Part shown: positions 7,492 through 50,405 of the stretch, piece after piece
How the letters are laid out: each line of letters begins with the position of its first letter
How positions within the stretch are numbered: the stretch's first letter is position 1
Assembly: GCF_041886205.1 (NCBI RefSeq)
Contig: NZ_CP169029.1
Source: Escherichia coli
Lineage (GTDB): Bacteria; Pseudomonadota; Gammaproteobacteria; Enterobacterales; Enterobacteriaceae
DNA: 64,000 bases
Reading direction: 5' to 3' (one strand)
Notes under the pieces: generated by a model
What the model was told of the DNA's origin: nothing
What the model saw: only the letters and a program-made list of their open reading frames with translations
The model's database searches: none
Position numbers and translations under genes: made by a program

Positions 7492-7721
7492 TCTTCAATA
7501 GCCATTCCACATTCACTCGATCTTGCATATTAGGTAATATCTGAATCCCCCCTCCAGGCTCACCAAAAGCGGGGGCAATCTTTCCTTGTATAGCAGGCAA
7601 GGGTTTTATTACCTCATATTCATAGTATTTATATGAACGCATCCCGTTTGCAAGGCATCCATTGTTTTGACATGACGGGTAGGTTGCAGCTTTATATCCG
7701 GCTTTATTGCAGCCGTAACGC
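7468..7721 (-). pseudogene. Start-less open frame, possible C-terminal fragment of a truncated polymorphic-toxin gene
   Basis: Open frame on the minus strand (...NKAGYKAATYPSCQNNGCLANGMRSYKYYEYEVIKPLPAIQGKIAPAFGEPGGGIQILPNMQDRVNVEWLLKNGYIREVR*) with no plausible start, ending 21 nt inside the downstream ORF. Confidence 0.25.
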
Positions 7722-7902
7722 TGCGAGCCCCTATGTAATTCGCCGACTCACCCCTTATTTTCACGGCGGACTTCAAGCCCAAAATACTGTTCAGGTTTAG
7801 TGAGTCACGGTCTTACCTGTCTTTGTCATCACTCTGGCCGCCATAGCAACCTTTCAGCATTCACCCTTTTGTTAAGAGTTCATTGTTTAATGGTATCAGC
7901 GA

Positions 7903-8064
7903 TTAATATGGTCTGATACTGACGTGGTTCCTGTCATACTTACGGTCATGGGCGGTTATCGCCCATACTGTTCGTGCCAGCTTGTTTGCCATGGCGACGA
8001 TTGCCACACTGGCTGGACGACGTTTTTTCAGTTCGGTTATCCACGGGCCAGGCTCTTTAGCTAC
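7903..8064 (-). pseudogene. IS110-family transposase, C-terminal part, separated from its 5' part by an IS66-family insertion
   Basis: Minus-strand translation continues the interrupted tnp frame across the target duplication (...KEPGPWITELKKRRPASVAISAMANKL...), a typical IS110-family C-terminal tail. Confidence 0.55.
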
Positions 8065-8094
8065 GTAAGCGACTCGTCAGAACCGTATTGATAT

Positions 8095-9666
8095 TTACTG
8101 AGAGCTCAGATCAACTTTCCAGGGCAACAGATCGCGTACCCGGTTTGCCGGCCAGTCCTGGATATGTTCAATGACGTAACGCAGCCACTTTTCTGGCTCC
8201 ACATTGTTCAGACGGCATGTGCCGATCAGCGAGTACAACACCGCCGCATGTTCACCACCGCTGTCGGAACCCGCGAACATCCAGTTTTTCCGGCCTACGG
8301 CCACTCCCCGTAAGGCGTTCTCTGCGATGTTGTTGTCGATTTCCACCCAGCCATTACTGCAGTACACGTTCAGTGCATCCCACTGTTTCAGCAGGTATGC
8401 GAACGCTTTTGCCGTATCTGAGTGACGCGACAGTGTTTTCATCTGTTGCTGTATCCAGTCATACAGTGACTGCATCAGTGGCGCGGCTCTGGCTTTTCTT
8501 GCCGCCAGACGCTGTTCTGCTGAACAGCCCCGGACCTCTGCCTCGATGGCATACAGTTCACCGATACGCTGCAGGGCTTCCGTGGTGATGTAGGTGGACG
8601 CTCTTGCATGCACATCGTGGATTTTTCTCCGGGCATGAGCCATACACGCGGCTTCCGTTATTCTGCCGGATTCGTATAACGCCCGGTAACCACCGTAAGC
8701 ATCGGCCTGAAGCACACCGCTGTAACCGGCCAGGTGATTTTGTGGATGGATACCTTTCCGGTCCGGACTGTACGCGAACCAGACCGCCGGGGGCATCTGT
8801 GAACCGGCGTTACGGTCATCACGGACGTAGACCCACAGCCGGGCTGTCCGGGTTTTACCGCTGCCCGGCTCCTGGACCGGGACGGGGATATCATCAGCAT
8901 GGACTTTACCGGGCATCAGCACATACTGGCGCAGGACGTCATACAGCGGCTCCAGCAGTTCAGCAACAGCACCTGTCCAGCGCCCCAGTGTGGCACGGCT
9001 CAGCTCCACTCCCTGACGACGGTATATTTCTGACTGGCGGTATAACGGCAGATGGTCTGCATATTTCCCGGTGACAACATGGGCCAGAAGCCCCGCTCCG
9101 GCATAACTGCGTGCAATGGGTTTTGAAGGTACTGGTGCCTGCACGATATGGTCGCACCGGCAACAGGCCTGTTTCGGACGTTGTGTTTCGATAACCTTAA
9201 AGGCGCTGCTGATAAGCTCCAGTTGCTCTGACACATCACATCCCAGAGAACTGAGTTCACCACCACAGGCAGGACAGCATTCCTCTTCCGGCCGGATAAC
9301 CCGGGTTTCACGGGGAAGTGAGGCCGGTAACGGTTTACGGGCTGAAGACTGGCGCAGGGCGGATGGCAGTACCGGGTCATATTGCTCACCCAGCGTTTCC
9401 GCCATTTCTTCCTGAAGTGCGCTGATTCGCTCCTGTGCTTCCTGTATCTGCCGTTCGGTTTTTGCACGAAGTTTTTCTGAGCTTTTACCGAACTGCATAC
9501 GTTGCAGTTTCGCAACCAGCGCCTTCAGCCGGTTGATTTCGGAAGCATAAGCCGCCACCCGCTGTGAGAGCAGGCGGTTGTATTCAGCCATCTGGCGGAT
9601 GGTGTCCTGTTGCGTCTGCAACAGTGCCCGCAGGCGGGCGTTCTCATGAGCAAGTGAGGTGTCCAT
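8095..9666 (-). CDS. IS66-family transposase TnpC
   Basis: 523 aa, N-terminal coiled-coil/leucine-zipper region, CxxC zinc-finger pairs, typical IS66 TnpC length. Confidence 0.85.
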
Positions 9667-9685
9667 ATCCTCACTTTACAACGGG

Positions 9686-10033
9686 TTATATGCGGATTCC
9701 AGCGCGTTCCGTTCGTTTCGGGTGCTTCCAGTTGATACCTTCAAGAAGCATGGATAACTGAGCCGGAGTAAGGTGCACCTTGCCGTCACGGGTGACTGGC
9801 CAGACGAAGCGGCCCCGCTCCAGGCGTTTGGTGAAGAGGCACAGTCCGTCACTGTCAGCCCACAACACTTTTATCTGGTCACCCCGGCGTCCGCGGAAGA
9901 TGAACAGGTGTCCGGAGAACGGGTCATCCTTCAGGACGTTCTGAACTTTTGATGCCAGGCCGTTAAAGCCATTTCGCATATCGGTGATACCTGCAACCAG
10001 CCAGATACGCGAACCTGCAGGGAGAGATATCAT
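9686..10033 (-). CDS. IS66-family TnpB (orfB)
   Basis: 115 aa; WLVAGITDMRNGFNGLASKVQ motif characteristic of IS66 orfB. Confidence 0.85.
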   Translation of the reverse strand: MISLPAGSRIWLVAGITDMRNGFNGLASKVQNVLKDDPFSGHLFIFRGRRGDQIKVLWADSDGLCLFTKRLERGRFVWPVTRDGKVHLTPAQLSMLLEGINWKHPKRTERAGIRI

Positions 10034-10710
10034 CAGTGGCTGCTCCCTTTTATTTCGCGGATAAGTGTCTGTAATAACGCCGGCGTCAGTTTACCTTTAA
10101 GCCTGAGAGTTCCGGCCGGCAGAACCAGCTCACAACACAGACTGTCGGACGGTGTATTTATCTGCTCTGGTTCCTGTGCGGGGGCCGGGATTTTATTATC
10201 CGGCTCCGGCGTTAACGTCACGGGAAGCAGTGCCGGCATATTTTTTCCGGAAGGCAGCAGGCCACCTTTCCGGTATTGATGGCGCCAGTTGAAGAGCAGG
10301 TTATCGTTGATTCCGTTTTCCCGGGCGATCTGCGCCACACAGGCTCCGGGCTGCAGTGACTGCTCCACTAAGGCGATTTTAAACTCATAAGGGAAGTTGG
10401 GCCGCCGGGGACGTTTTTTTACCACGGGGGCTTCGGATATAACGGTGCTTTCAGGACGTACGACTGGTACCGTGGAAAATTGTCCGTAAAGGCAGGCATC
10501 AAGTTCCTGCTCCGACATGCCTGCGGGCAAAGGCCACGAAAGGCCAGCTCTCCGAAAGCGCACGAACATACTACAAACTGTTGATTTTGGTACACCCAGG
10601 CGACGCCCGGCCACAACCCGGGGTAAATGTTCTTCAAAGTGAAGACGTAAAGCTTCAGTGATCCAGGTCCGGTGTTTCATACGATAGTGTCCATTAAAAA
10701 TGATGGACAT
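10033..10710 (-). CDS. IS66-family orfA (HTH accessory protein, extended form)
   Basis: 225 aa; C-terminal IS66 orfA-like region (FKIALVEQSLQPGACVAQIARENGINDNLLFNWRHQY); start/stop overlap with orfB. Confidence 0.7.
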   Translation of the reverse strand: MSIIFNGHYRMKHRTWITEALRLHFEEHLPRVVAGRRLGVPKSTVCSMFVRFRRAGLSWPLPAGMSEQELDACLYGQFSTVPVVRPESTVISEAPVVKKRPRRPNFPYEFKIALVEQSLQPGACVAQIARENGINDNLLFNWRHQYRKGGLLPSGKNMPALLPVTLTPEPDNKIPAPAQEPEQINTPSDSLCCELVLPAGTLRLKGKLTPALLQTLIREIKGSSH

Positions 10711-10763
10711 TATTTTTGTAGAGCCGGAGGAAACAGACCAGACGGTTTAAATGAGCCGGTTAC

Positions 10764-11629
10764 TTAGCTACTAATGCCACCGCTCTTGCACCGTGGATAA
10801 ATAATGTCCTGAGATAAGTGTCACCACGTTTGCTTATCCCCAGCAGACGTACTTTCCCTCCGGAGCCAGTTTGTTTTGGAACCAGACCAACATATGCGGC
10901 GAACTCTCGCCCCGATTTAAACGCTGATGCTTCCCCCATGGTGGCCACCGCTGCCGTCGCAATAAGTGGTCCAACGCCAGGAATATCCAGCAACCGCTTA
11001 CAGGTTTCATTCTGCCTCGCCACGCTGGTAAGCTGTTTTTCAATATCCTCTATCAGTGAGTCCAGCTCATTCAGTCGGTTGTACTGGTTTTCCAGAACCA
11101 TAATGAGATACGGTGGCAGTCTCTCTTTCATCCGTTCCAGTGCTTCGGGGAACTCCCGCTCCATCGCTGCCCGGCCTTTGTGGATGGTTTCACCAAACTC
11201 CAGTAACGTCCCGTGCAGGGCATTAATTTGTGCGGTCCGGAACTTCACCAGTTGCATGCGGGTACGGTGCAGAACCAGTACCGACTGCTGTTCTTCTGTT
11301 TTTACGGCGATTTCTTTACCCGGCTGCTGAACCGCCATCCAGATAGCCCGGGCATCCATCACATCATTCTTATTGCCCATGACGAATGCCTTAACGAAGC
11401 GGGCCTGCAACAACCGGACTTTATGACCAAGTTTTGTCAGTTCCCGTGCCCAGTGCTGAGAACCTCCACAGGCCTCCATACCAATCAGGCATGGCTCACG
11501 GTTGCCGAAGAACATCAGAAAATCCTGTCTACGCAACTGTTTATCAACCACTTCACCTGTGTGCTCATTGATGAAGTGAATCTGAATGACATGTTTTGCG
11601 ATATCAACGCCAACCGGTGTATATTTCAT
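10764..11629 (-). pseudogene. IS110-family transposase, N-terminal 288 codons, truncated by the IS66-family insertion
   Basis: N-terminus MKYTPVGVDIAKHV (DEDD/RuvC-like) and C-terminal Tnp domain (DIPGVGPLIATAAV...YVGLVPKQTGSGGK...ISKRGDTYLR); its stop codon is supplied by the terminal bases of the IS66-family element. Confidence 0.7.
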
Positions 11630-11771
11630 TTGTGGAGTCTCCAGTCTGAGGGAGCTTTATGCATCCCGTATTGGGCACTATGATGCCGGAAATCTGCGAG
11701 GCTCCACACCTGCCAGTTTCACCCTTTTAACCATCATACTGCTCCGTGTTTAATTGTGTGGGATGCGTTCA

Positions 11772-11942
11772 TTACATTTTCACCATTTTGCCACTGCGGC
11801 CCCGGAAGACGAAGATATGCCCGGAGAACGGGTCATCTTTCAGCGTGTTCTGCACCTTCGAAGCCAGGCCGTTGAAGCCACAACGCATATCTGTGATGCC
11901 AGCGATGATCCAGATTCTGGTACCGGTCGGCAGCGTTATCAT
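11772..11942 (-). pseudogene. IS66-family orfB fragment (first ~50 codons) of a second, truncated IS66-family copy
   Basis: Translation MITLPTGTRIWIIAGITDMRCGFNGLASKVQNTLKDDPFSGHIFVFRGRSG then diverges; homologous to the intact orfB at 17905..18252. Confidence 0.6.
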
Positions 11943-12613
11943 CGGATACCCCCTTTCATTTCGCGAATGAGCACCCTAAGAAGCTCCGGAGTAAGGGGGG
12001 CAAACAGTTTTACCACACCTGATTTAAGATGCAGCTCACACTGTGGTGAGTCTACGGTAGTGTCATTCTGGCTTTCATCAGACTTGTTTCGCCAGAAAGG
12101 ATTTGTCACCGGTTTGACAGGGTCAGGAGTCTCAGTGATTGCTACCGGAACGGCCTGACATTCTTGGAGATCCTCATCATACAGTAAGCCCTCTTCATAC
12201 AGTCTTTTCCAGTTAAACAACAGATTGTCATTAATATTGTGCTCTCTGGCGATCCGTGCAACGACTGTACCAGGCTGTAATGCCTGTTTTACCAGCCTGA
12301 TTTTAAATTCACGACTGTAGGAGGTTCGTCGTTCTTTTCGCCATGTGCTTTCGCTGATTTGAGGCTCGGTTAATACCTTCTTTCTGTTGGCATAAAGTAT
12401 GGCATCAAGTTGGGCGACTGAAAGTGATTCAGGTAATGGCCAGGTAATACCGGAGGCATTAAATCGTTGAAAGAGATTATGAATAGTGGAATGACTGAGA
12501 CCTAACTGCAGGGCGATAGCCCGGACAGATAATTGCTCGTCGAATCTTAGACGTAATGCGTCTGGCAAATAAGAGCGAAAGCCGGTGATATCTTTTGTTG
12601 TCTGAGAATTCAT
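11939..12613 (-). CDS. IS66-family orfA (copy 2, extended form)
   Basis: Homologous to the orfA at 10033..10710 (IRLVKQALQPGTVVARIAREHNINDNLLFNWKRLY); probable start MNSQTT at 12613. Confidence 0.6.
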   Translation of the reverse strand: MNSQTTKDITGFRSYLPDALRLRFDEQLSVRAIALQLGLSHSTIHNLFQRFNASGITWPLPESLSVAQLDAILYANRKKVLTEPQISESTWRKERRTSYSREFKIRLVKQALQPGTVVARIAREHNINDNLLFNWKRLYEEGLLYDEDLQECQAVPVAITETPDPVKPVTNPFWRNKSDESQNDTTVDSPQCELHLKSGVVKLFAPLTPELLRVLIREMKGGIR

Positions 12614-12945
12614 CGTTCGTGTCCATCTATATAGATGGACGCGATTGTTGCCAGACAGGACAACCATCACAAAACGTCACAGACGGAGCCTTACATCTCA
12701 GCTGTAGCACACGCAGGATCAATTCCGGATTATCTGCCAGTACCGCCTTTCGTGCATTCATCTTAAATGTCCTTTTACTGCGAAAATGGACATTAGTATC
12801 GGAAACAGGAAAGGGAGGCGAAAGACGGTTTAAATGATGCGCTTACTGTTGTCTGGGAATTCATCGTTTGTGTCCATCAATATAGTTGGGCACGATTGTT
12901 GCCAGACAGGACAATTTTCACAAGACGTCGCAGATGGGGCGCTTA
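12596..12945. repeat. Imperfect ~90-bp direct repeat of an IS66-family terminus / orfA 5' region (12596-12700 and 12853-12945) containing the 20-bp perfect palindrome GTCCATCTATATAGATGGAC
   Basis: Aligned by eye; both copies carry GAATTCATCG...GTCCAT...GATTGTTGCCAGACAGGACAA; a CGCTTAC-type terminus follows at 12843-12850 and 12937-12943. Confidence 0.6.
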
Positions 12946-13267
12946 CCAATAACTCGGCAGGGAGTTATCTGTGCGAGGATATTTGTGTTATGCTGTAATA
13001 TAATAATTCAATGTGTTCAGGAACAGTAATATGCTACAGTTTCTACTTTCTTGTATTTAATAAATTGTTCCGTATCGCTAAAAGCAGGTCTTTCAGAAGT
13101 CAAAAGGATTCTGTGGTCCCAGTATTTTTAGTTATCTTATTTTTATATCTAATTTGTAATACTTATAGCATTTTCATTCTTCCTAATGGAAGGCTGTAAT
13201 AATCTTTGAGCTTAGGAACATCAAAATTATGCATCTCATTAATTTTGTCAGTCACACGACCTCTGGT

Positions 13268-14609: not shown

Positions 14610-14956
14610 TGTTATTTCTTTGTCAGGAGACTCTGAAAATATGGACATATATAACCTCTTTTATTATGAAATATTTTCAATAATAATCCGTTAGTAATCC
14701 TATCATAGGGTAATGCCTCATCATGTTAAAATGATCACATTTATAATCATGTCAAAAAGAACAACAGAAAAAATGATTTAAAATCAATTAAATATAATTT
14801 CAACATATTGTTGTTATTAAAACATTGGTGGTAAATGTAAAGCGAGAACAGTTTGTAACAGTGACTCCTTGCAGACTAAGTTAGAGTCTCCTGATCTTAC
14901 CCAGCAATAGTGGACACGCGGCTAAGTGAGTAAACTCTCAGTCAGAGGTGACTCAC

Positions 14957-15256
14957 ATGACAAAAACAGTATCAACCAGTAAAAAACCCCGTAAACAGCA
15001 TTCGCCTGAATTTCGCAGTGAAGCCCTGAAGCTTGCTGAACGCATCGGTGTTACTGCCGCAGCCCGTGAACTCAGCCTGTATGAATCACAGCTCTACAAC
15101 TGGCGCAGTAAACAGCAAAATCAGCAGACGTCTTCTGAACGTGAACTGGAGATGTCTACCGAGATTGCACGTCTCAAACGCCAGCTGGCAGAACGGGATG
15201 AAGAGCTGGCTATCCTCCAAAAGGCCGCGACATACTTCGCGAAGCGCCTGAAATGA
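14957..15256 (+). CDS. insE: IS3 OrfA (InsE)
   Basis: Translation [32 protein letters not shown]... matches my recollection of IS3 InsE. Confidence 0.85.
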
Positions 15257-16119
15257 AGTATGTCTTTATTGAAAAACATCAGGCTGAGTTCAGCATCAAA
15301 GCAATGTGCCGCGTGCTCCGGGTGGCCCGCAGCGGCTGGTATACGTGGTGTCAGCGGCGGACAAGGATAAGCACGCGTCAGCAGTTCCGCCAACACTGCG
15401 ACAGCGTTGTCCTCGCGGCTTTTACCCGGTCAAAACAGCGTTACGGTGCCCCACGCCTGACGGATGAACTGCGTGCTCAGGGTTACCCCTTTAACGTAAA
15501 AACCGTGGCGGCAAGCCTGCGCCGTCAGGGACTGAGGGCAAAGGCCTCCCGGAAGTTCAGCCCGGTCAGCTACCGCGCACACGGCCTGCCTGTGTCAGAA
15601 AATCTGTTGGAGCAGGATTTTTACGCCAGTGGCCCGAACCAGAAGTGGGCAGGAGACATCACGTACTCACGTACAGATGAAGGCTGGCTGTATCTGGCAG
15701 TGGTCATTGACCTGTGGTCACGTGCCGTTATTGGCTGGTCAATGTCGCCACGCATGACGGCGCAACTGGCCTGCGATGCCCTGCAGATGGCGCTGTGGCG
15801 GCGTAAGAGGCCCCGGAACGTTATCGTTCACACGGACCGTGGAGGCCAGTACTGTTCAGCAGATTATCAGGCGCAACTGAAGCGGCATAATCTACGTGGA
15901 AGTATGAGCGCAAAAGGTTGCTGCTACGATAATGCCTGCGTGGAAAGCTTCTTTCATTCGCTGAAAGTGGAATGTATCCATGGAGAACACTTTATCAGCC
16001 GGGAAATAATGCGGGCAACGGTGTTTAATTATATCGAATGTGATTACAATCGGTGGCGGCGGCACAGTTGGTGTGGCGGCCTCAGTCCGGAACAATTTGA
16101 AAACAAGAACCTCGCTTAG
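15253..16119 (+). CDS. insF: IS3 OrfB (InsF, DDE transposase/integrase core)
   Basis: 288 aa; rve-type catalytic core; overlaps orfA as expected for -1 frameshift expression. Confidence 0.9.
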
Positions 16120-16248
16120 GCCTGTGTCCATATTACGTGGGTAGGATCAATAAGCATATCCAGAGGTGGTGTACAAGCCAGAGTAAAACGTGAGTTTTAT
16201 TTGGTAAAATCGTAAGCGCCCTTTGTAGAGCGTAGTGTAAGCAGGGGT

Positions 16249-17885
16249 TTACAGAACGAGGTTCCAGTGCAACAACTCTTCCACCCGGTTTGACGGCCAT
16301 TCACTGATACAGCTGATGACCTCACGCAACCAGCTTTCCGGATCCACTCCTTTCAGCCAGCATGTCGCCAGCAGGCTGTACAGGATCGCTGCGCTCTGAC
16401 CTCCCGTGTCTGAGCCGAAGAATAGCCAGTTGCGTCGCCCTAGGGCGACACAACGCAGTGTGTTTTCTGCGATATTATTGTCCAGCTCCACACGCCCGTC
16501 CTCACAACAGAGCGACAGCGATTCACGGTGGTTCAGCATATAGCTGAACGCTTTCCCCAGCTCTGCATGCACCGACAACGTCTCCATCTGTTCTGTCAGC
16601 CACGCGAACAACGCCTTCATCTGCGGGACGCTTTTCTCCTGCCGTTCTGCCAGCCGTTTCTCTGCCGGTGACCCCGGATTGTCGCTTCCACCACATACAG
16701 CCCGGCTATATGCTTCAGCGCCTCCGTTGTCATCGCTGCCGGCCGGCGAACATGCTCATCATGGATCTTTCTCCTTGCATGCGCCATGCAGGCGGCTTCC
16801 CTGATCCGCCCTGACTCATAAAGCGCATCGTAACCGGCAAACGCATCTGCCTGCAGGATACCTTTCCACTCCGCCAGATGCCCCTGCGGGTGACAGCCCC
16901 GACGATCTGCACTGTAAGCGAACCACGCCGCTGGCGGAGCCGCTGAACCGCGGTTCCGGTCATCGAGCACATACACCCACAGCCGGCCCGTCCGGGTTTT
17001 ACCGCTCCCCGGCTCCAGCACTTTCACCGGGGTGTCGTCCGTGTGCTATTTGCTGCTCTCTCTCCATCACGTAGCGGTTCAGCGCATCGTGCAGGGGACT
17101 GAGTCGTTCTGCGGTCATCGCCACCCACCGGACCAGCGTGTTTCGGCTCAGTTCCACACCCTGGTGGCTGAAGATGACGGACTGACGATGCAGCGGGGTA
17201 TGGTCACAGTATTTACTCACCAGGATGCGGGCCAGCAGGTCCGCACCGGCCACACTGCGGGTCAGCGGTTTCGGGGGAGTGGTGCCTGGACTATCACATC
17301 GCAGCGGCTGCAGGCCAGCTTCGGGCGCACCGTTTCGATGACCTTAAAGGAGCTGCGGATTATCTCCAGTTGCTCTGAGACGGTTTCACTCATAACCTTC
17401 AGGTCGCCGCCGCATTTCGGGCAGACAGTCTCTGTCGGGGGGATGCGCCGGGTTTCACGTGACAGGTCTGCCGGCAGTTTCTGACGACGGGAGCGGCGTG
17501 CAGGCCGGTCCTGTGGGGCGACCGCCACCGGGGGCTCTGCCTGCTCAACCGTACCGACAGCGGGCTCATCGTCCTGCAGACAGCGTTTTGCCGCTGCAAG
17601 ACGGTTTTCCAGCTCAGCCAGCCGCTTCTCTGCCTGGCGGATTTTATTTTCCAGTTTATTGCGGCTTTTCTCCGAACTCTGCCCGAACAGCATCCGCCGC
17701 AGCTTATCAAGCTGTGCCTTCAGCCGTTCGATTTCCTGTTCGTAGTCGGCAACCTGTCCGGCGTACTGGCGCAGCCGGGCCTGCTGCTTTTTCATGGTAA
17801 CATTTAGCTGTTCCACAGCAACCTGCTGCTGACGCAACAGGGCTTTCAGCTGGTCGATATTATCAGGAAGCGGGATATTTTTCAT
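16249..17885 (-). pseudogene. IS66-family tnpC pseudogene (multiple frameshifts)
   Basis: Four consecutive minus-strand ORF pieces (17262..17885, 16999..17253, 16617..17027, 16249..16620) together resemble one TnpC. Confidence 0.7.
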
Positions 17886-17904
17886 CCTGCCCAGGTAAAG
17901 GGAT

Positions 17905-18252
17905 TCAGATCCGCAGACTATTACTTTTCGACCTTCCCGGTTGCATCCAGACTATACCCTCCAGCAGCATGGCAAGCTGTGCCGGGGTCAGATACACCTT
18001 TCCCTCCCGGGCGACCGGCCAGATGAACGTTCCCCGTTCAAGTCTTTTCATATAGATGCAGAGCCCTCCGCTGTCTGCCCACAGGAGTTTTACCAGCCTG
18101 CCCCTGCGTCCCCGGAAGATGAAGAGATGGCCGGAGATCGGGTCATCCTTCAGGGTGTTCTGGACCTTTGCGGCCAGACCGTTGAAGCCGTTTCTCATGT
18201 CGGTGATGCCGGCCACGAGCCAGATAAGGCAGCCAGCCGGAAGCGTAATCAT
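17905..18252 (-). CDS. IS66-family TnpB (orfB)
   Basis: 115 aa, close homologue of the orfB at 9686..10033. Confidence 0.8.
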   Translation of the reverse strand: MITLPAGCLIWLVAGITDMRNGFNGLAAKVQNTLKDDPISGHLFIFRGRRGRLVKLLWADSGGLCIYMKRLERGTFIWPVAREGKVYLTPAQLAMLLEGIVWMQPGRSKSNSLRI

Positions 18253-18659
18253 ACTGTGCTCCTGCCGGCGAGTTCGCGGACGATCCGGAGCTGTTTCTCC
18301 GGGTCAGGATTGTCGAGTGTGAGGGTGCCGTGGCGAAGCGTCAGCGAGCAGGTTGACCCCGTTCCCTGACCAGACAGAGCCGGAGACTGCCGGGTGGTGG
18401 AGTCAGGTACAATTTCGACCGGAAGTGCCGCAGGAGGGGATACAGATGGAACGGGAGCTGGCAGCCGGCGGAATACCCGGCCTTCTTTACGCCACAGACG
18501 GATCCATTTAAAAAGGACGTTATCGTTGACCCCGTGCGTACGGGCAATATCCGCAACATTGGCGTCCGGTCGGGTAGCCAGTTCGACCAGCCTGAGTTTG
18601 AATTCGCTGGAATAAACGCGGCGGGGTTCGGTCCGCCAGGCCCGGGTTTCAGATTCCAT
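18249..18659 (-). CDS. IS66-family orfA
   Basis: 136 aa; FKLRLVELATRPDANVADIARTHGVNDNVLFKWIR motif. Confidence 0.75.
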   Translation of the reverse strand: MESETRAWRTEPRRVYSSEFKLRLVELATRPDANVADIARTHGVNDNVLFKWIRLWRKEGRVFRRLPAPVPSVSPPAALPVEIVPDSTTRQSPALSGQGTGSTCSLTLRHGTLTLDNPDPEKQLRIVRELAGRSTV

Positions 18660-18796
18660 AACTTAGATGTCCGTCTGTTTCAGATGGGCGTCTAAGTTAG
18701 CGTTTTCACTCGACTGCCTGAAGACGTCTCTGACGGGTCGCTTACGTAAAATCAACCACGGGAAGCTCAACGGTGAAGTACTTTACCAGTTGATCA

Positions 18797-40541: not shown

Positions 40542-41660
40542 GGAAATATCCCCCTCTTCACCGCTCGAATGGTAAATAAGTCCTGCCAGTCTTGCCATAT
40601 ACTCTGCATTTTTAGCAGCATATTCCCGGCAATGTCTTAAAGGCCCCAATCCCCCCAGCTTCGATTCCACATCATTGTAATAATCCGTCCAGATTCTGGC
40701 AGCCTGAGGAGAAAAGTGAAGGCAACGTCGTTCACCACTCATCGCCAGACTTTCATCAATAAGCTCATTGATCCTCTCTTCAAACAAATCCTGATACTGT
40801 GATGAATAATTATCTCCGGTTATTATCCTTGTCCCCTGCGTTGATGTTGGTTGACACATCAAAAACCTTGCATGATGTCCTGACGTTTTCACAATTTCTT
40901 TTTTTCGCGTACAAAAACCTTTGTGGTAAACATCAGGCTGAATCATCACCGATATCGTCAGTCTTGGCTCCTTCAAATTAATTCCGGGAGATGATTTCCT
41001 GTCGATGAAAAGAGAACCTCCATCCCACAAAGTGTTAATAATTCCCAGTTTACTCATGGCCCGGCTGTCAAAAATTACCCCCCCTTCACTGGATACAAGA
41101 GCAAAAGAGCGATTGCTGTCGGAATAATATTTTAACATTCCCTCTATCGTTGTCTCATTAAAAATTGTTCGACGTATCTGCGGCGGAACAGGAGGTTTAT
41201 TCAGATGCGTTTCAAGCTCTGATTCTGTTGCCTTGTAATCTTTACCGGCACGAATCTCTTTATGAAATTTTGATTCCAGCGCTTTTTGTTTTTGCTCCCA
41301 TATTTCCTTTTCTGTACTGTAATTCTCAACCAGTTTCGCGTATTCTTCCGCCAGGGCTTCATCCCTGAGATAAAATGCTTTCATAAACACTTTATCCACG
41401 GTCGTTTTCCTTTCACCGGAATCAGCCAGAATCAGAGAGTAAAGATTAACAGGCCCATGTAAATTTCCAGGTCTGCACACGTCAATCTGATTCTGACAGG
41501 CAATTGAGATCGCTGTTAATGCGGATGTTGCCACCATAGCCAAAGGTGCCTGTGTATTTTTTTGAGTTTCAATTATTGCATTTCTCACCAGCGGTGGTAG
41601 TGCATATATCGGATAAGGATTTTCTGGTGCAAGTAAGCACATAAAAGCCTCTCTTTTCAT
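40530..41660 (-). pseudogene. DUF3987 (YfjI-like) gene, N-terminal 376 codons, disrupted by IS186
   Basis: Resembles CP4-57 YfjI; frame ends inside the IS186 terminal repeat. Confidence 0.55.
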
Positions 41661-41860
41661 TAATGGGTTAGTAAAATAGCAGCAAATCCCGCTACAATAG
41701 CGAAAATAGCTGCTATTCAGACCTGATGCTCTGAGAAATACAGAGCATTTGTAGATCTGATGTTTAATAAACCGATAAGGTTAATTCAGTGAAGACTGTA
41801 TTATTCACCACGAAATATCATTCATATTTCTCATTCTTAATACCTCCAGAAATTATTTCA

Positions 41861-42200
41861 CTAATACCTTTCCCCCGGTCTTTTCCCTTTCTCCAGAACC
41901 ATAGTGTAAATATTAACGGCCCCACGTAAATTTCCGGGACTGCATACGTCAACCTGATTCTGACAGGCAATTGACATCGCTGTTAATACTGACATTGCAA
42001 CCAGAGTCAGAGGTACTTGTTTATTGTATTGAGCTTTAATTATTGCCTTCCCTATCATTGATGGTCATGCATATACTGAATACGGCATATCCGGTTTGAT
42101 GTAAGACATAAATGCTTCCTTTTTCGTAATACGTTTCGGTTATAGCAGCAATTACCGCTACAATAGCGACAATAGCTGCTCTTTCAACAATGAATGCTGG
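41861..42200 (-). repeat. Degenerate tandem duplicate of the yfjI-like 5' end and upstream region
   Basis: 41900-42190 aligns with 41440-41700; the 65-aa ORF 41861..42058 repeats the N-terminal motif (...SIACQNQVDVCSPGNL...). Confidence 0.55.
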
Positions 42201-47061: not shown

Positions 47062-47522
47062 CCCCCTCACCGCCATATTTAAAGAAGAGCTCGTACGAAA
47101 GTACGGGCTTTTTTTTCGTATATTGCACACACCGGGGGGATGAGAATCCCCGACCGGGGGTCGACAACTGGCGGCAGCCAGTTGGACAGACCGTGAACGC
47201 AGTGAGCGGGCTGCCCGCAGGGCGAGCGAAGCGAGTCAATCCCCCCCTCACCGCCATATTTAAAGAAGAGCTCGTACGAAAGTACGGGCTTTTTTTTTCG
47301 TATATTGCACACACCGGGGGGATGAGAATCCCCGACCGGGGGTCGACAACTGGCGACAGCCAGTTGGACAGACCGTGAACGCAGTGAGCGGGCTGCCCGC
47401 AGGGCGAGCGAAGCGAGTCAATCCCCCCCTCACCGCCATATTTAAAGAAGAGCTCGTACGAAAGTACGGGCTTTTTTTCGTGTATTGCACACACCGGGGG
47501 GATGAGAATCCCCGACCGGGAT
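47062..47522 (+). repeat. Tandem ~180-bp repeats (about 2.6 copies), each beginning with a tRNA-Ser(GGA)-like 3'-end copy (attachment core)
   Basis: Unit starts at about 47062, 47243 and 47424; copies 2 and 3 carry AATCCCCCCCTCACCGCCA; each unit also contains a hairpin plus T-run (GCTCGTACGAAAGTACGGGCTTTTTTT) and further stem-loops. Confidence 0.7.
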
Positions 47523-50069: not shown

Positions 50070-50405
50070 TGCATCAGGCATCAGTGCACGATCGCCGGAT
50101 GCGGCGTAAACGCCTTATCCAGCCTACCAAACCCGCACCGATTATAGGCATGATAAGACGCGCAAGCGTCGCATCAGGCATCAGTGCACGATCGCCGGAT
50201 GCGGCGTAAACGCCTTATCCAGCCTACCAAACCCGCACCGATTGTAGGCATGATAAGACGCGCAAGCGTCGCATCAGGCATCAGCGCACGAACGCCGGAT
50301 GCGGCATCAACGCCTTATCCCGCCTACCGAACCCGCACCGATTGTAGGCATGATAAGACGCGCAAGCGTCGCATCAGGCATCAGCGCACGAATGCCTTAT
50401 TCGCC
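50070..50405. repeat. REP/BIME cluster (three tandem units)
   Basis: Repeated GCCGGATGCGGCGTAAACGCCTTATCCAGCCTAC and partner palindromes between efeB and phoH. Confidence 0.75.

Follow-up and report, generated by a model that had tools for sequence, protein, structure and literature searches.

Stacked IS66-family left ends and a conserved inverted repeat upstream of tnpA in an Escherichia coli genome

The stack of IS66-family left ends

The stretch of Escherichia coli DNA analyzed here (64 kb, called the window) contains, around positions 12596-12946, a stack of left ends of insertion sequences (ISs) of the IS66 family, together with the tnpA (orfA) gene of one of them and a perfect palindrome in front of it. 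An initial annotation had described this region as a duplicated IS66 terminus whose palindrome looked like an operator. We observe that three different left ends follow one another on the minus strand in the order B, C, A, with B and C running from 12946 down to 12695 and A starting at 12694. All IS66 parts at the locus lie on this strand, and the features of the stack are as follows.

12847 to 12946, minus strand: the initial 100 bp of element B, a member of the IS66 family, with its left inverted repeat (GTAAGCGCCCC...), its leader and the first 6 codons of tnpA (ATG at 12864-12862)
12872 to 12891, minus strand: decayed leader dyad of B, GCCCAACTATATTGATGGAC, differing at 2 dyad positions from the intact O157-type version
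12695 to 12846, minus strand: the initial 152 bp of element C, a different member of the IS66 family, with its left inverted repeat (GTAAGCGCATCATTTAAACCGTC...), a leader dyad and about 22 codons of tnpA (ATG at 12761-12759)
12614 to 12694, minus strand: left inverted repeat and tnpA leader of element A (GTAAGGCTCC...), 97% identical to plasmid copies such as that on p15648-3
12621 to 12640, no strand assigned: 20-bp perfect palindrome GTCCATCTATATAGATGGAC, the form that the conserved IS66 leader dyad takes in A, 7 nt before the tnpA ATG
11939 to 12613, minus strand: tnpA of A, an intact open reading frame (ORF) of 224 amino acids with a homology-supported ATG at 12613-12611, labeled 'IS66-like element accessory protein TnpA' in RefSeq
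11776 to 11942, minus strand: N-terminal fragment of the tnpB gene of A (first 56 codons), overlapping the tnpA stop codon and cut by ISEc11 between GGTGAAAAT and GTAATGAACG

A repeat finder reports the direct repeat 12596-12689/12847-12940 (94 nt, 86% identity, 251 bp spacing), and BLAST enlarges the pair to 12596-12694 and 12847-12946 (100 columns, 86%), confirming the two homologous tnpA 5' ends with their termini. The 152 bp between them (12695-12846) indeed belong to another IS66-type terminus, the left end of C. The motif GACGGTTTAAATGA is shared within the window, as had been noted, at 12824-12837 and at 10741-10754; the second position had been given 3 bp off, as 10744-10757. The idea of a duplicated terminus did not survive, since the two copies belong to different elements. 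A and B are about 82-86% identical, and the nearest relatives of each lie elsewhere (96-97%): B shares 96% identity with the left end of an element of O157:H7 (L004 3501-3598) and 86% with A, and A is 97% identical to its plasmid copies. C is identical over 152 of 152 positions to an intact copy on plasmid p12690-2 (L003 3501-3652), which has both ends and an 8-bp target duplication, ATTCATGC.

The B-C and C-A junctions both fall exactly on the GTAAG... terminus, that is, on the first base of an inverted repeat, in agreement with the earlier suggestion of repeated insertion at IS ends. B is cut short by C after codon 6 of tnpA, and C by A after about codon 22 of tnpA, positions at which the partners share no sequence. 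In the window, A breaks off within tnpB, and the 3' part of this gene, tnpC and the right end are missing. None of the three elements is able to transpose from this site.

The same stack is found in five complete, independently assembled E. coli genomes from three sources. The chromosomes of the bovine strains ZYB39, ZYB62, C10 and C11 match it at 99.8-100% over 1301 bp, and in the human strain JML285 the stack is likewise present, the leader of C there holding an additional copy of an intact IS66-family element, X. The stack of exact junctions thus serves as a lineage marker common to these five strains. The arrangement of two similar segments of about 100 bp, in the same orientation and 251 bp apart, could be expected from a local tandem duplication or from misassembly of a single IS66 copy. 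This explanation can safely be set aside, given copies that are only 86% alike and each nearer to elements elsewhere, a spacer that corresponds exactly to the left end of a third element, and a structure that recurs in five concordant complete genomes, one of them carrying a clean IS insertion with its target duplication inside it. The possibility of an assembly artefact raised earlier is rejected on the same grounds.

Membership of the IS66 family follows from gene content, from termini and, where right ends exist, from target duplications. The gene order is tnpA-tnpB-tnpC, with matches to the Pfam families HTH_Tnp_1, TnpB_IS66 (PF05717) and DDE_Tnp_IS66, and tnpA overlaps tnpB. TnpA of A has two helix-turn-helix regions (HTH_Tnp_1, 1.5e-21; HTH_23, 8.5e-10), and its tnpB fragment matches TnpB_IS66 at 4.2e-16 over profile positions 2-49 of 101. 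TnpA of the intact C copy matches HTH_Tnp_1 at 9.6e-17. A tnpC gene is present in that copy, in A of ZYB39 and, with a truncated C-terminus, in the B-like element of O157:H7. X matches for all three genes: tnpA at 7.6e-15, tnpB at full length at 4.7e-40, and tnpC at 8.7e-103 (PF03050, with zf-IS66 and LZ domains). The termini of A (GTAAGGCTCC), B (GTAAGCGCCCC), C (GTAAGCGCATC) and X (GTAACCGGCTC) begin with GTAAGCG or GTAACCG, all having the 5'-GTAA(G/C)C start, and right ends finish in ...CGCTTAC. Target duplications of 8 bp flank X in the window (GTAGCTAA), X in JML285 (CATTTTCG) and, as mentioned above, the intact copy of C. Gene order, Pfam families, termini and duplications are those of IS66 elements of the IS679/ISEc8/ISCro1 type, whereas region 12596-12946 keeps only left-end fragments of B and C.

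Element A is in turn interrupted by ISEc11, which itself holds X.

10764 to 11775, minus strand: 5' part of ISEc11 (IS110/IS1111-type) with most of its transposase gene (Pfam DEDD_Tnp_IS110, PF01548, and Transposase_20, PF02371; 'IS110-like element ISEc11 family transposase' in RefSeq)
8065 to 10763, minus strand: element X, an intact IS66-family element (tnpA, tnpB, tnpC; 'ISCro1 family' in RefSeq) inside ISEc11, flanked by its duplication at 8057-8064 and 10764-10771
7627 to 8064, minus strand: 3' part of ISEc11, whose outer flank in the window is ACTATGAAT... and not the remaining tnpB of A

ISEc11 lies in the tnpB gene of A exactly between GTGAAAAT and ACTG, where the tnpB coding sequence reads MVKILW (window 11776-11783 and 7621-7627; L001 4630-4645). 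In ZYB39, the two junctions (GGTGAAAAT followed by GTAATG..., and ...ATAAAT followed by ACTGTGG) rebuild GTGAAAATACTG, and the right junction is identical in the window. This sequence, with insertion between GTGAAAAT and ACTG, is the reported target of ISEc11, a seekRNA-guided IS1111-type element (PMC11187229). The insertion therefore has the same target as the published ISEc11; here this target is an IS66 tnpB coding sequence, and in the window another sequence has replaced the outer flank. We find ACTATGAAT... (ACTATG...) where ACTGTGGGCC... (ACTGTGG...) is expected; this flank is unrelated to tnpB, and the distal part of A must therefore have disappeared in a rearrangement with one end at ISEc11. 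The same ISEc11 insertion occurs in ZYB39, JML285 and plasmid p15648-3. The copy of X in JML285 (L002 5090-7775, 99.3% identical) occupies another site, inside the loop of the C leader dyad. The genomes are otherwise collinear, and X is bordered by clean 8-bp duplications at both of its sites, which indicates that it has been active recently.

The rest of B and C was sought in the window and in ZYB39 and is absent from both, which rules out a simple nested insertion with the remainders kept. In ZYB39 (L001 2830-2870, minus strand), the right end of A (…GGTGCGCTTAC) is directly followed by GGTTTAAATGAGACGGTTAC. With these 20 bp a C/X-type IS66 left end begins, here in inverted orientation, and the site is a further end-to-end junction of IS66 elements. 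We rejected this 20-bp fragment as the right end of C, because the true right end of C differs. The missing right-hand parts of B and C, together with a right end of A that is not followed by C, require later deletions or rearrangements.

These data suggest the following history. B would have inserted first, downstream of a uhpC-like gene, followed by C after codon 6 of the B tnpA and then by A after about codon 22 of the C tnpA, both in the orientation of B. Later deletions or rearrangements would have taken the right-hand parts of B and C, ISEc11 would then have entered its specific target in the tnpB of A, and the active ISCro1-like X would have entered ISEc11. Whereas junctions, identities and target duplications can be read directly, this order is deduced from the nesting and from the decay of B, which is 4% diverged from its intact relatives and has a damaged dyad; C shows 0% divergence, which fits B being the oldest.

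Homologous recombination between dispersed IS66 copies might also create such junctions. Many IS66 copies are present here, A, B and C are without target duplications in the window, and the mosaic nature of X and C is clear: window 8066-10350 is 94.6% identical to L003 3919-6203, from position 419 of C to the right end, and the first 420 bp or so (terminus, leader and N-terminal half of tnpA) are unrelated. This mosaicism suggests recombination between IS66 elements. Nevertheless, each of the B-C and C-A junctions coincides precisely with the first base of an inverted repeat and interrupts sequence without homology between the partners, a hallmark of transposition and not of crossover, and we consider recombination a very improbable origin of the stack. 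The anatomy of the stack itself we regard as secure.

The inverted repeat in the tnpA leader

The initial annotation had placed the palindrome over the orfA start. GTCCATCTATATAGATGGAC is indeed a perfect 20-bp palindrome, the only one in the window (about 0.06 expected by chance), but it stops 7 nt short of the tnpA ATG. In the mRNA sense, the 3' arm of the palindrome is AUAGAUGGAC and contains a GGA 8 nt upstream of the ATG, the position of a Shine-Dalgarno core. A close relative of A has a shorter center (TATT) with unchanged arms, so the central TATATA is not conserved.

The leaders compared came from the window (A, B, X and Y, the last a degraded element described below), public E. coli records, 148 viral-contig loci and ten plasmid loci, and they fall into 11 distinct lineages with TnpA identities to A down to 27-31%. 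A clear inverted repeat occurs at the same place in 8 of the 11 lineages:

A/B: GTCCATCTAT and ATAGATGGAC
X: GTCCAT-N8-ATGGAC
C: ATGTCC-N15-GGACAT (in the window, ATGTCC at 12793-12788 and GGACAT at 12772-12767)
Y/Z: ACTTAGAcGCCCATCTG-N3-CAGACGGACaTCTAAGT
ISKox1-like: TAGAGCTCCgTCTAA and TTAGAaGGAGCTCTg
L080/L083: GATAGAGTCC-N16-GGACTCTATC
L077/L110: AGGTGCCCAC-N12-GTGGAC(G/A)CCT
L141/L148: clear inverted repeat, the eighth lineage

Two more lineages (L149-type and L073) have a weaker version, and L031 has a direct repeat. The palindrome of A is thus not peculiar to this site; it is a perfect version of a repeat found upstream of tnpA in most enterobacterial IS66 lineages. In every lineage with a dyad, the 3' arm holds GGA or GGAG at a distance of 7-10 nt to the start codon. 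Between the arm cores (YCC and GGA) lie 10 to 28 nt (10, 12, 13, 15, 16 and 28), a variation that does not correspond to the fixed spacing of an operator. The minimum-energy fold of each intact leader contains the hairpin, which is missing from the fold of the decayed B leader.

The arms, which come from related sequences, were aligned by hand on the YCC/GGA anchor with an artificial 4-nt linker and compared with shuffles. They pair in 75.8% of cells (61.1% in shuffles), changes on both sides occur in 44 cells (20.8 in shuffles), and covariation scores 0.395 (shuffles, 0.170; slid registers, 0.04-0.14); for each of the three values, 0 of 500 shuffles reach the observed one. Column pairs switch between GC, AU and CG, and between UA and AU.

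A scan of 12400-13100 found no sigma-70 consensus promoter or terminator on either strand. A promoter or terminator at the palindrome itself was rejected for the same reason and because the TATATA center is not kept in the closest relative of A. The leader has no Rfam family match at E<=1. The literature searched, which did not include the primary IS66 papers, contains no description of the leader dyad or of IS66 leader structure or targeting.

How the dyad may act

We favor, tentatively and short of even confidence, an RNA stem-loop that limits the translation of tnpA. The arms would pair in the tnpA transcript, above all in read-in transcripts coming from outside the element, and hide the ribosome-binding site, which would keep the synthesis of TnpA and TnpB low, an effect demonstrated by experiment for IS200 and described for IS10. 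This preference stems from a constant distance to the start codon, a free loop length, arms that covary, and the presence of some G·U pairs. In the window, the system is a fossil, because A has neither a whole tnpB nor tnpC.

An experimentally established precedent exists in IS200, where a left-end inverted repeat gives both a stem-loop in the mRNA and an antisense small RNA (PMC4513863). In IS66 as in IS200, the repeat is placed between terminus and tnpA with its 3' arm spanning the ribosome-binding site, and a hairpin can form on either strand. The two systems are nevertheless unrelated in sequence and family, with a Y1 (HUH) transposase in IS200 and a DDE transposase in IS66, and the predicted IS66 stem is shorter (about 7-16 bp).

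A similar fold-back idea is known from IS10/Tn10, for which Davis, Simons and Kleckner (1985) reportedly described fold-back inhibition alongside the antisense RNA-OUT, the upstream arm of outside transcripts pairing with the translation start region, so that external promoters are unable to switch on the transposase. IS66 would share this fold-back idea with IS10, in which the native promoter lies between the arms.

Several observations weigh against the stem-loop. No sigma-70 consensus promoter was found in the scanned region, so that the presence of both arms in the native mRNA is presumed. Pairing of the Shine-Dalgarno sequence is always above the mean of shuffles and individually weak (shuffle fraction 0.003-0.44). 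The sense hairpin is weaker than the antisense one in several lineages. A palindromic operator bound by a homodimer would also keep its halves matched, so that covariation alone is not decisive, and the anchoring of the alignment on YCC/GGA leans towards structure. The lineages compared are all enterobacterial or from viral contigs of unknown host. For the insertion history, A, B and C have no target duplications at this site, where their right ends are missing, and in ZYB39 A also lacks one, its right end abutting the 20-bp IS66 fragment and not the rest of C.

The initial annotation had read the palindrome as an operator, and a dimer of the helix-turn-helix protein TnpA, or another DNA-binding protein, could repress tnpA transcription there. 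TnpA has two helix-turn-helix regions, the dyad is symmetric, conserved, promoter-proximal and adjoins the gene start, and the 8-mer RTGGACAC is kept across lineages with otherwise unalignable leaders, beyond what a Shine-Dalgarno sequence needs. In L031 and L151, moreover, the motif occurs twice in direct orientation, which suits a protein site better than a hairpin. A rigid dimer, however, would not tolerate half-site cores whose gap ranges as widely as that given above. Beyond the core, the arms change completely between lineages and yet stay complementary, several G·U pairs break the DNA symmetry, and the dyad has no overlapping sigma-70 consensus promoter. The distance that is constant is the one between GGA and the start codon, as translation control predicts. 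We consequently find the operator less likely than an RNA structure, and doubtful as the function of the palindrome.

The functional structure might instead reside on the opposite strand, as an outward antisense RNA over the tnpA start, comparable to RNA-OUT of IS10 or art200 of IS200, which would fold into the stable stem-loop and pair with the tnpA ribosome-binding site. In A, B-like elements, X, L075, Y and Z, the hairpin is more stable on the antisense than on the sense strand (-22.9 vs -10.4 kcal/mol in Y/Z and -16.0 vs -8.6 kcal/mol in X). The difference arises because the imperfections of the sense stem are mostly C·A or A·C, which the opposite strand turns into G·U pairs; 19 cells are of this kind, and sense G·U is seen in 2. 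In the dyads of A, B-like elements, X, Y/Z and L141 (e.g., window 12614-12650, 10681-10715 and 18662-18700), almost all imperfections are of the C·A/A·C type and the antisense strand folds 3-12 kcal/mol better, and in half of the lineages the imperfections are compatible with G·U only on the antisense strand. The left-end repeat of IS200, with its antisense product, is again a precedent (PMC4513863). No outward promoter was found in the scan, however, nor in the first 60 nt of tnpA of A and X, in the ISKox1-like lineages the polarity is reversed or missing, and Rfam offers no matching family. Once collapsed to lineages, the polarity falls to about 13 to 3, where the composition of the 5' arm alone predicts about 62% (p about 0.09), and we therefore take the raw 19 vs 2, striking as it is, as suggestive and not as significant evidence. 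The C·A/A·C polarity may hint at an antisense RNA or at a tuning of the sense hairpin, and we hold an antisense RNA as the main function to be unlikely.

Returning to the translational stem-loop, the stack itself creates a chimeric ORF of 44 codons (window 12627-12761, minus strand) that runs from the ATG of the C tnpA through the inverted repeat of A to a stop inside the A palindrome, 14 nt before the ATG of the A tnpA. Its translation could open the A hairpin.

Neighboring elements and meaning for the IS66 family

A third, degraded IS66 element, Y, lies at about 16200-18755 in the window, with a short tnpA (18249-18659) and a fragmented tnpC. It adjoins an IS3-family element (14948-16119) with a two-ORF frameshift arrangement. 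On the left, past ISEc11, window 5500-7600 matches orphan CdiA toxin/immunity modules of other E. coli (TNT domain, immunity 63 and endonuclease), and the IS nest thus borders a contact-dependent inhibition locus. Self-BLAST also returned three further sets of direct repeats, at 47062-47520, 50071-50396 and 41426-42180; their properties are a spacing of about 180 bp at 98%, a spacing of about 100 bp at 93-96%, and a 290-bp pair at 77%.

The nest resembles the IS 'graveyards' of E. coli islands and virulence plasmids in its mutual interruption and truncation, with no substantive difference. It is ordinary, and it is already present in public genomes, where it is annotated as IS66 tnpA/tnpB. The three insertions at the site all have one orientation, for which chance gives 1 in 4. 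Further cases of nesting are C inside the tnpC of ISEc23 (L003) and a B-like element inside a C-type tnpA (L164 and L074). In viral contigs, we also observe a short-TnpA IS66 element 47 bp inside the left end of another, in the same orientation (L062 ~1350-1420), and an IS66 element inside an IS66 tnpC (L046 ~1400-1435). A preference of IS66 for IS66 left ends was nevertheless rejected as anecdotal; in viral contigs, other IS66 elements are the site of about 3 out of about 60 independent insertions. The B-like insertions both follow directly the codon for N in a conserved 'ARE-GIN-DN' motif of another IS66 tnpA (L074 ~380-400; L164 2420-2435, minus strand). They are found on the plasmids p600657_208 of S. 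boydii and pNTEC2-42405 of E. coli, in target genes that are about 70% identical at the site, and this site may be an insertion hotspot.

Taken as a whole, the locus is probably a pile of dead IS66-family left ends left by successive transposition, with the palindrome of A as a conserved leader inverted repeat that may limit tnpA translation. It is possible, at a level well below that, that the dyad represents an undescribed regulatory element common to enterobacterial IS66, namely a stem-loop over the tnpA ribosome-binding site, perhaps combined with an outward antisense RNA. The stack itself matters little, being IS debris in an E. coli island. To our knowledge, the regulation of IS66 is essentially unstudied, and a conserved and covarying dyad over the tnpA ribosome-binding site provides a concrete and cheap hypothesis for it.

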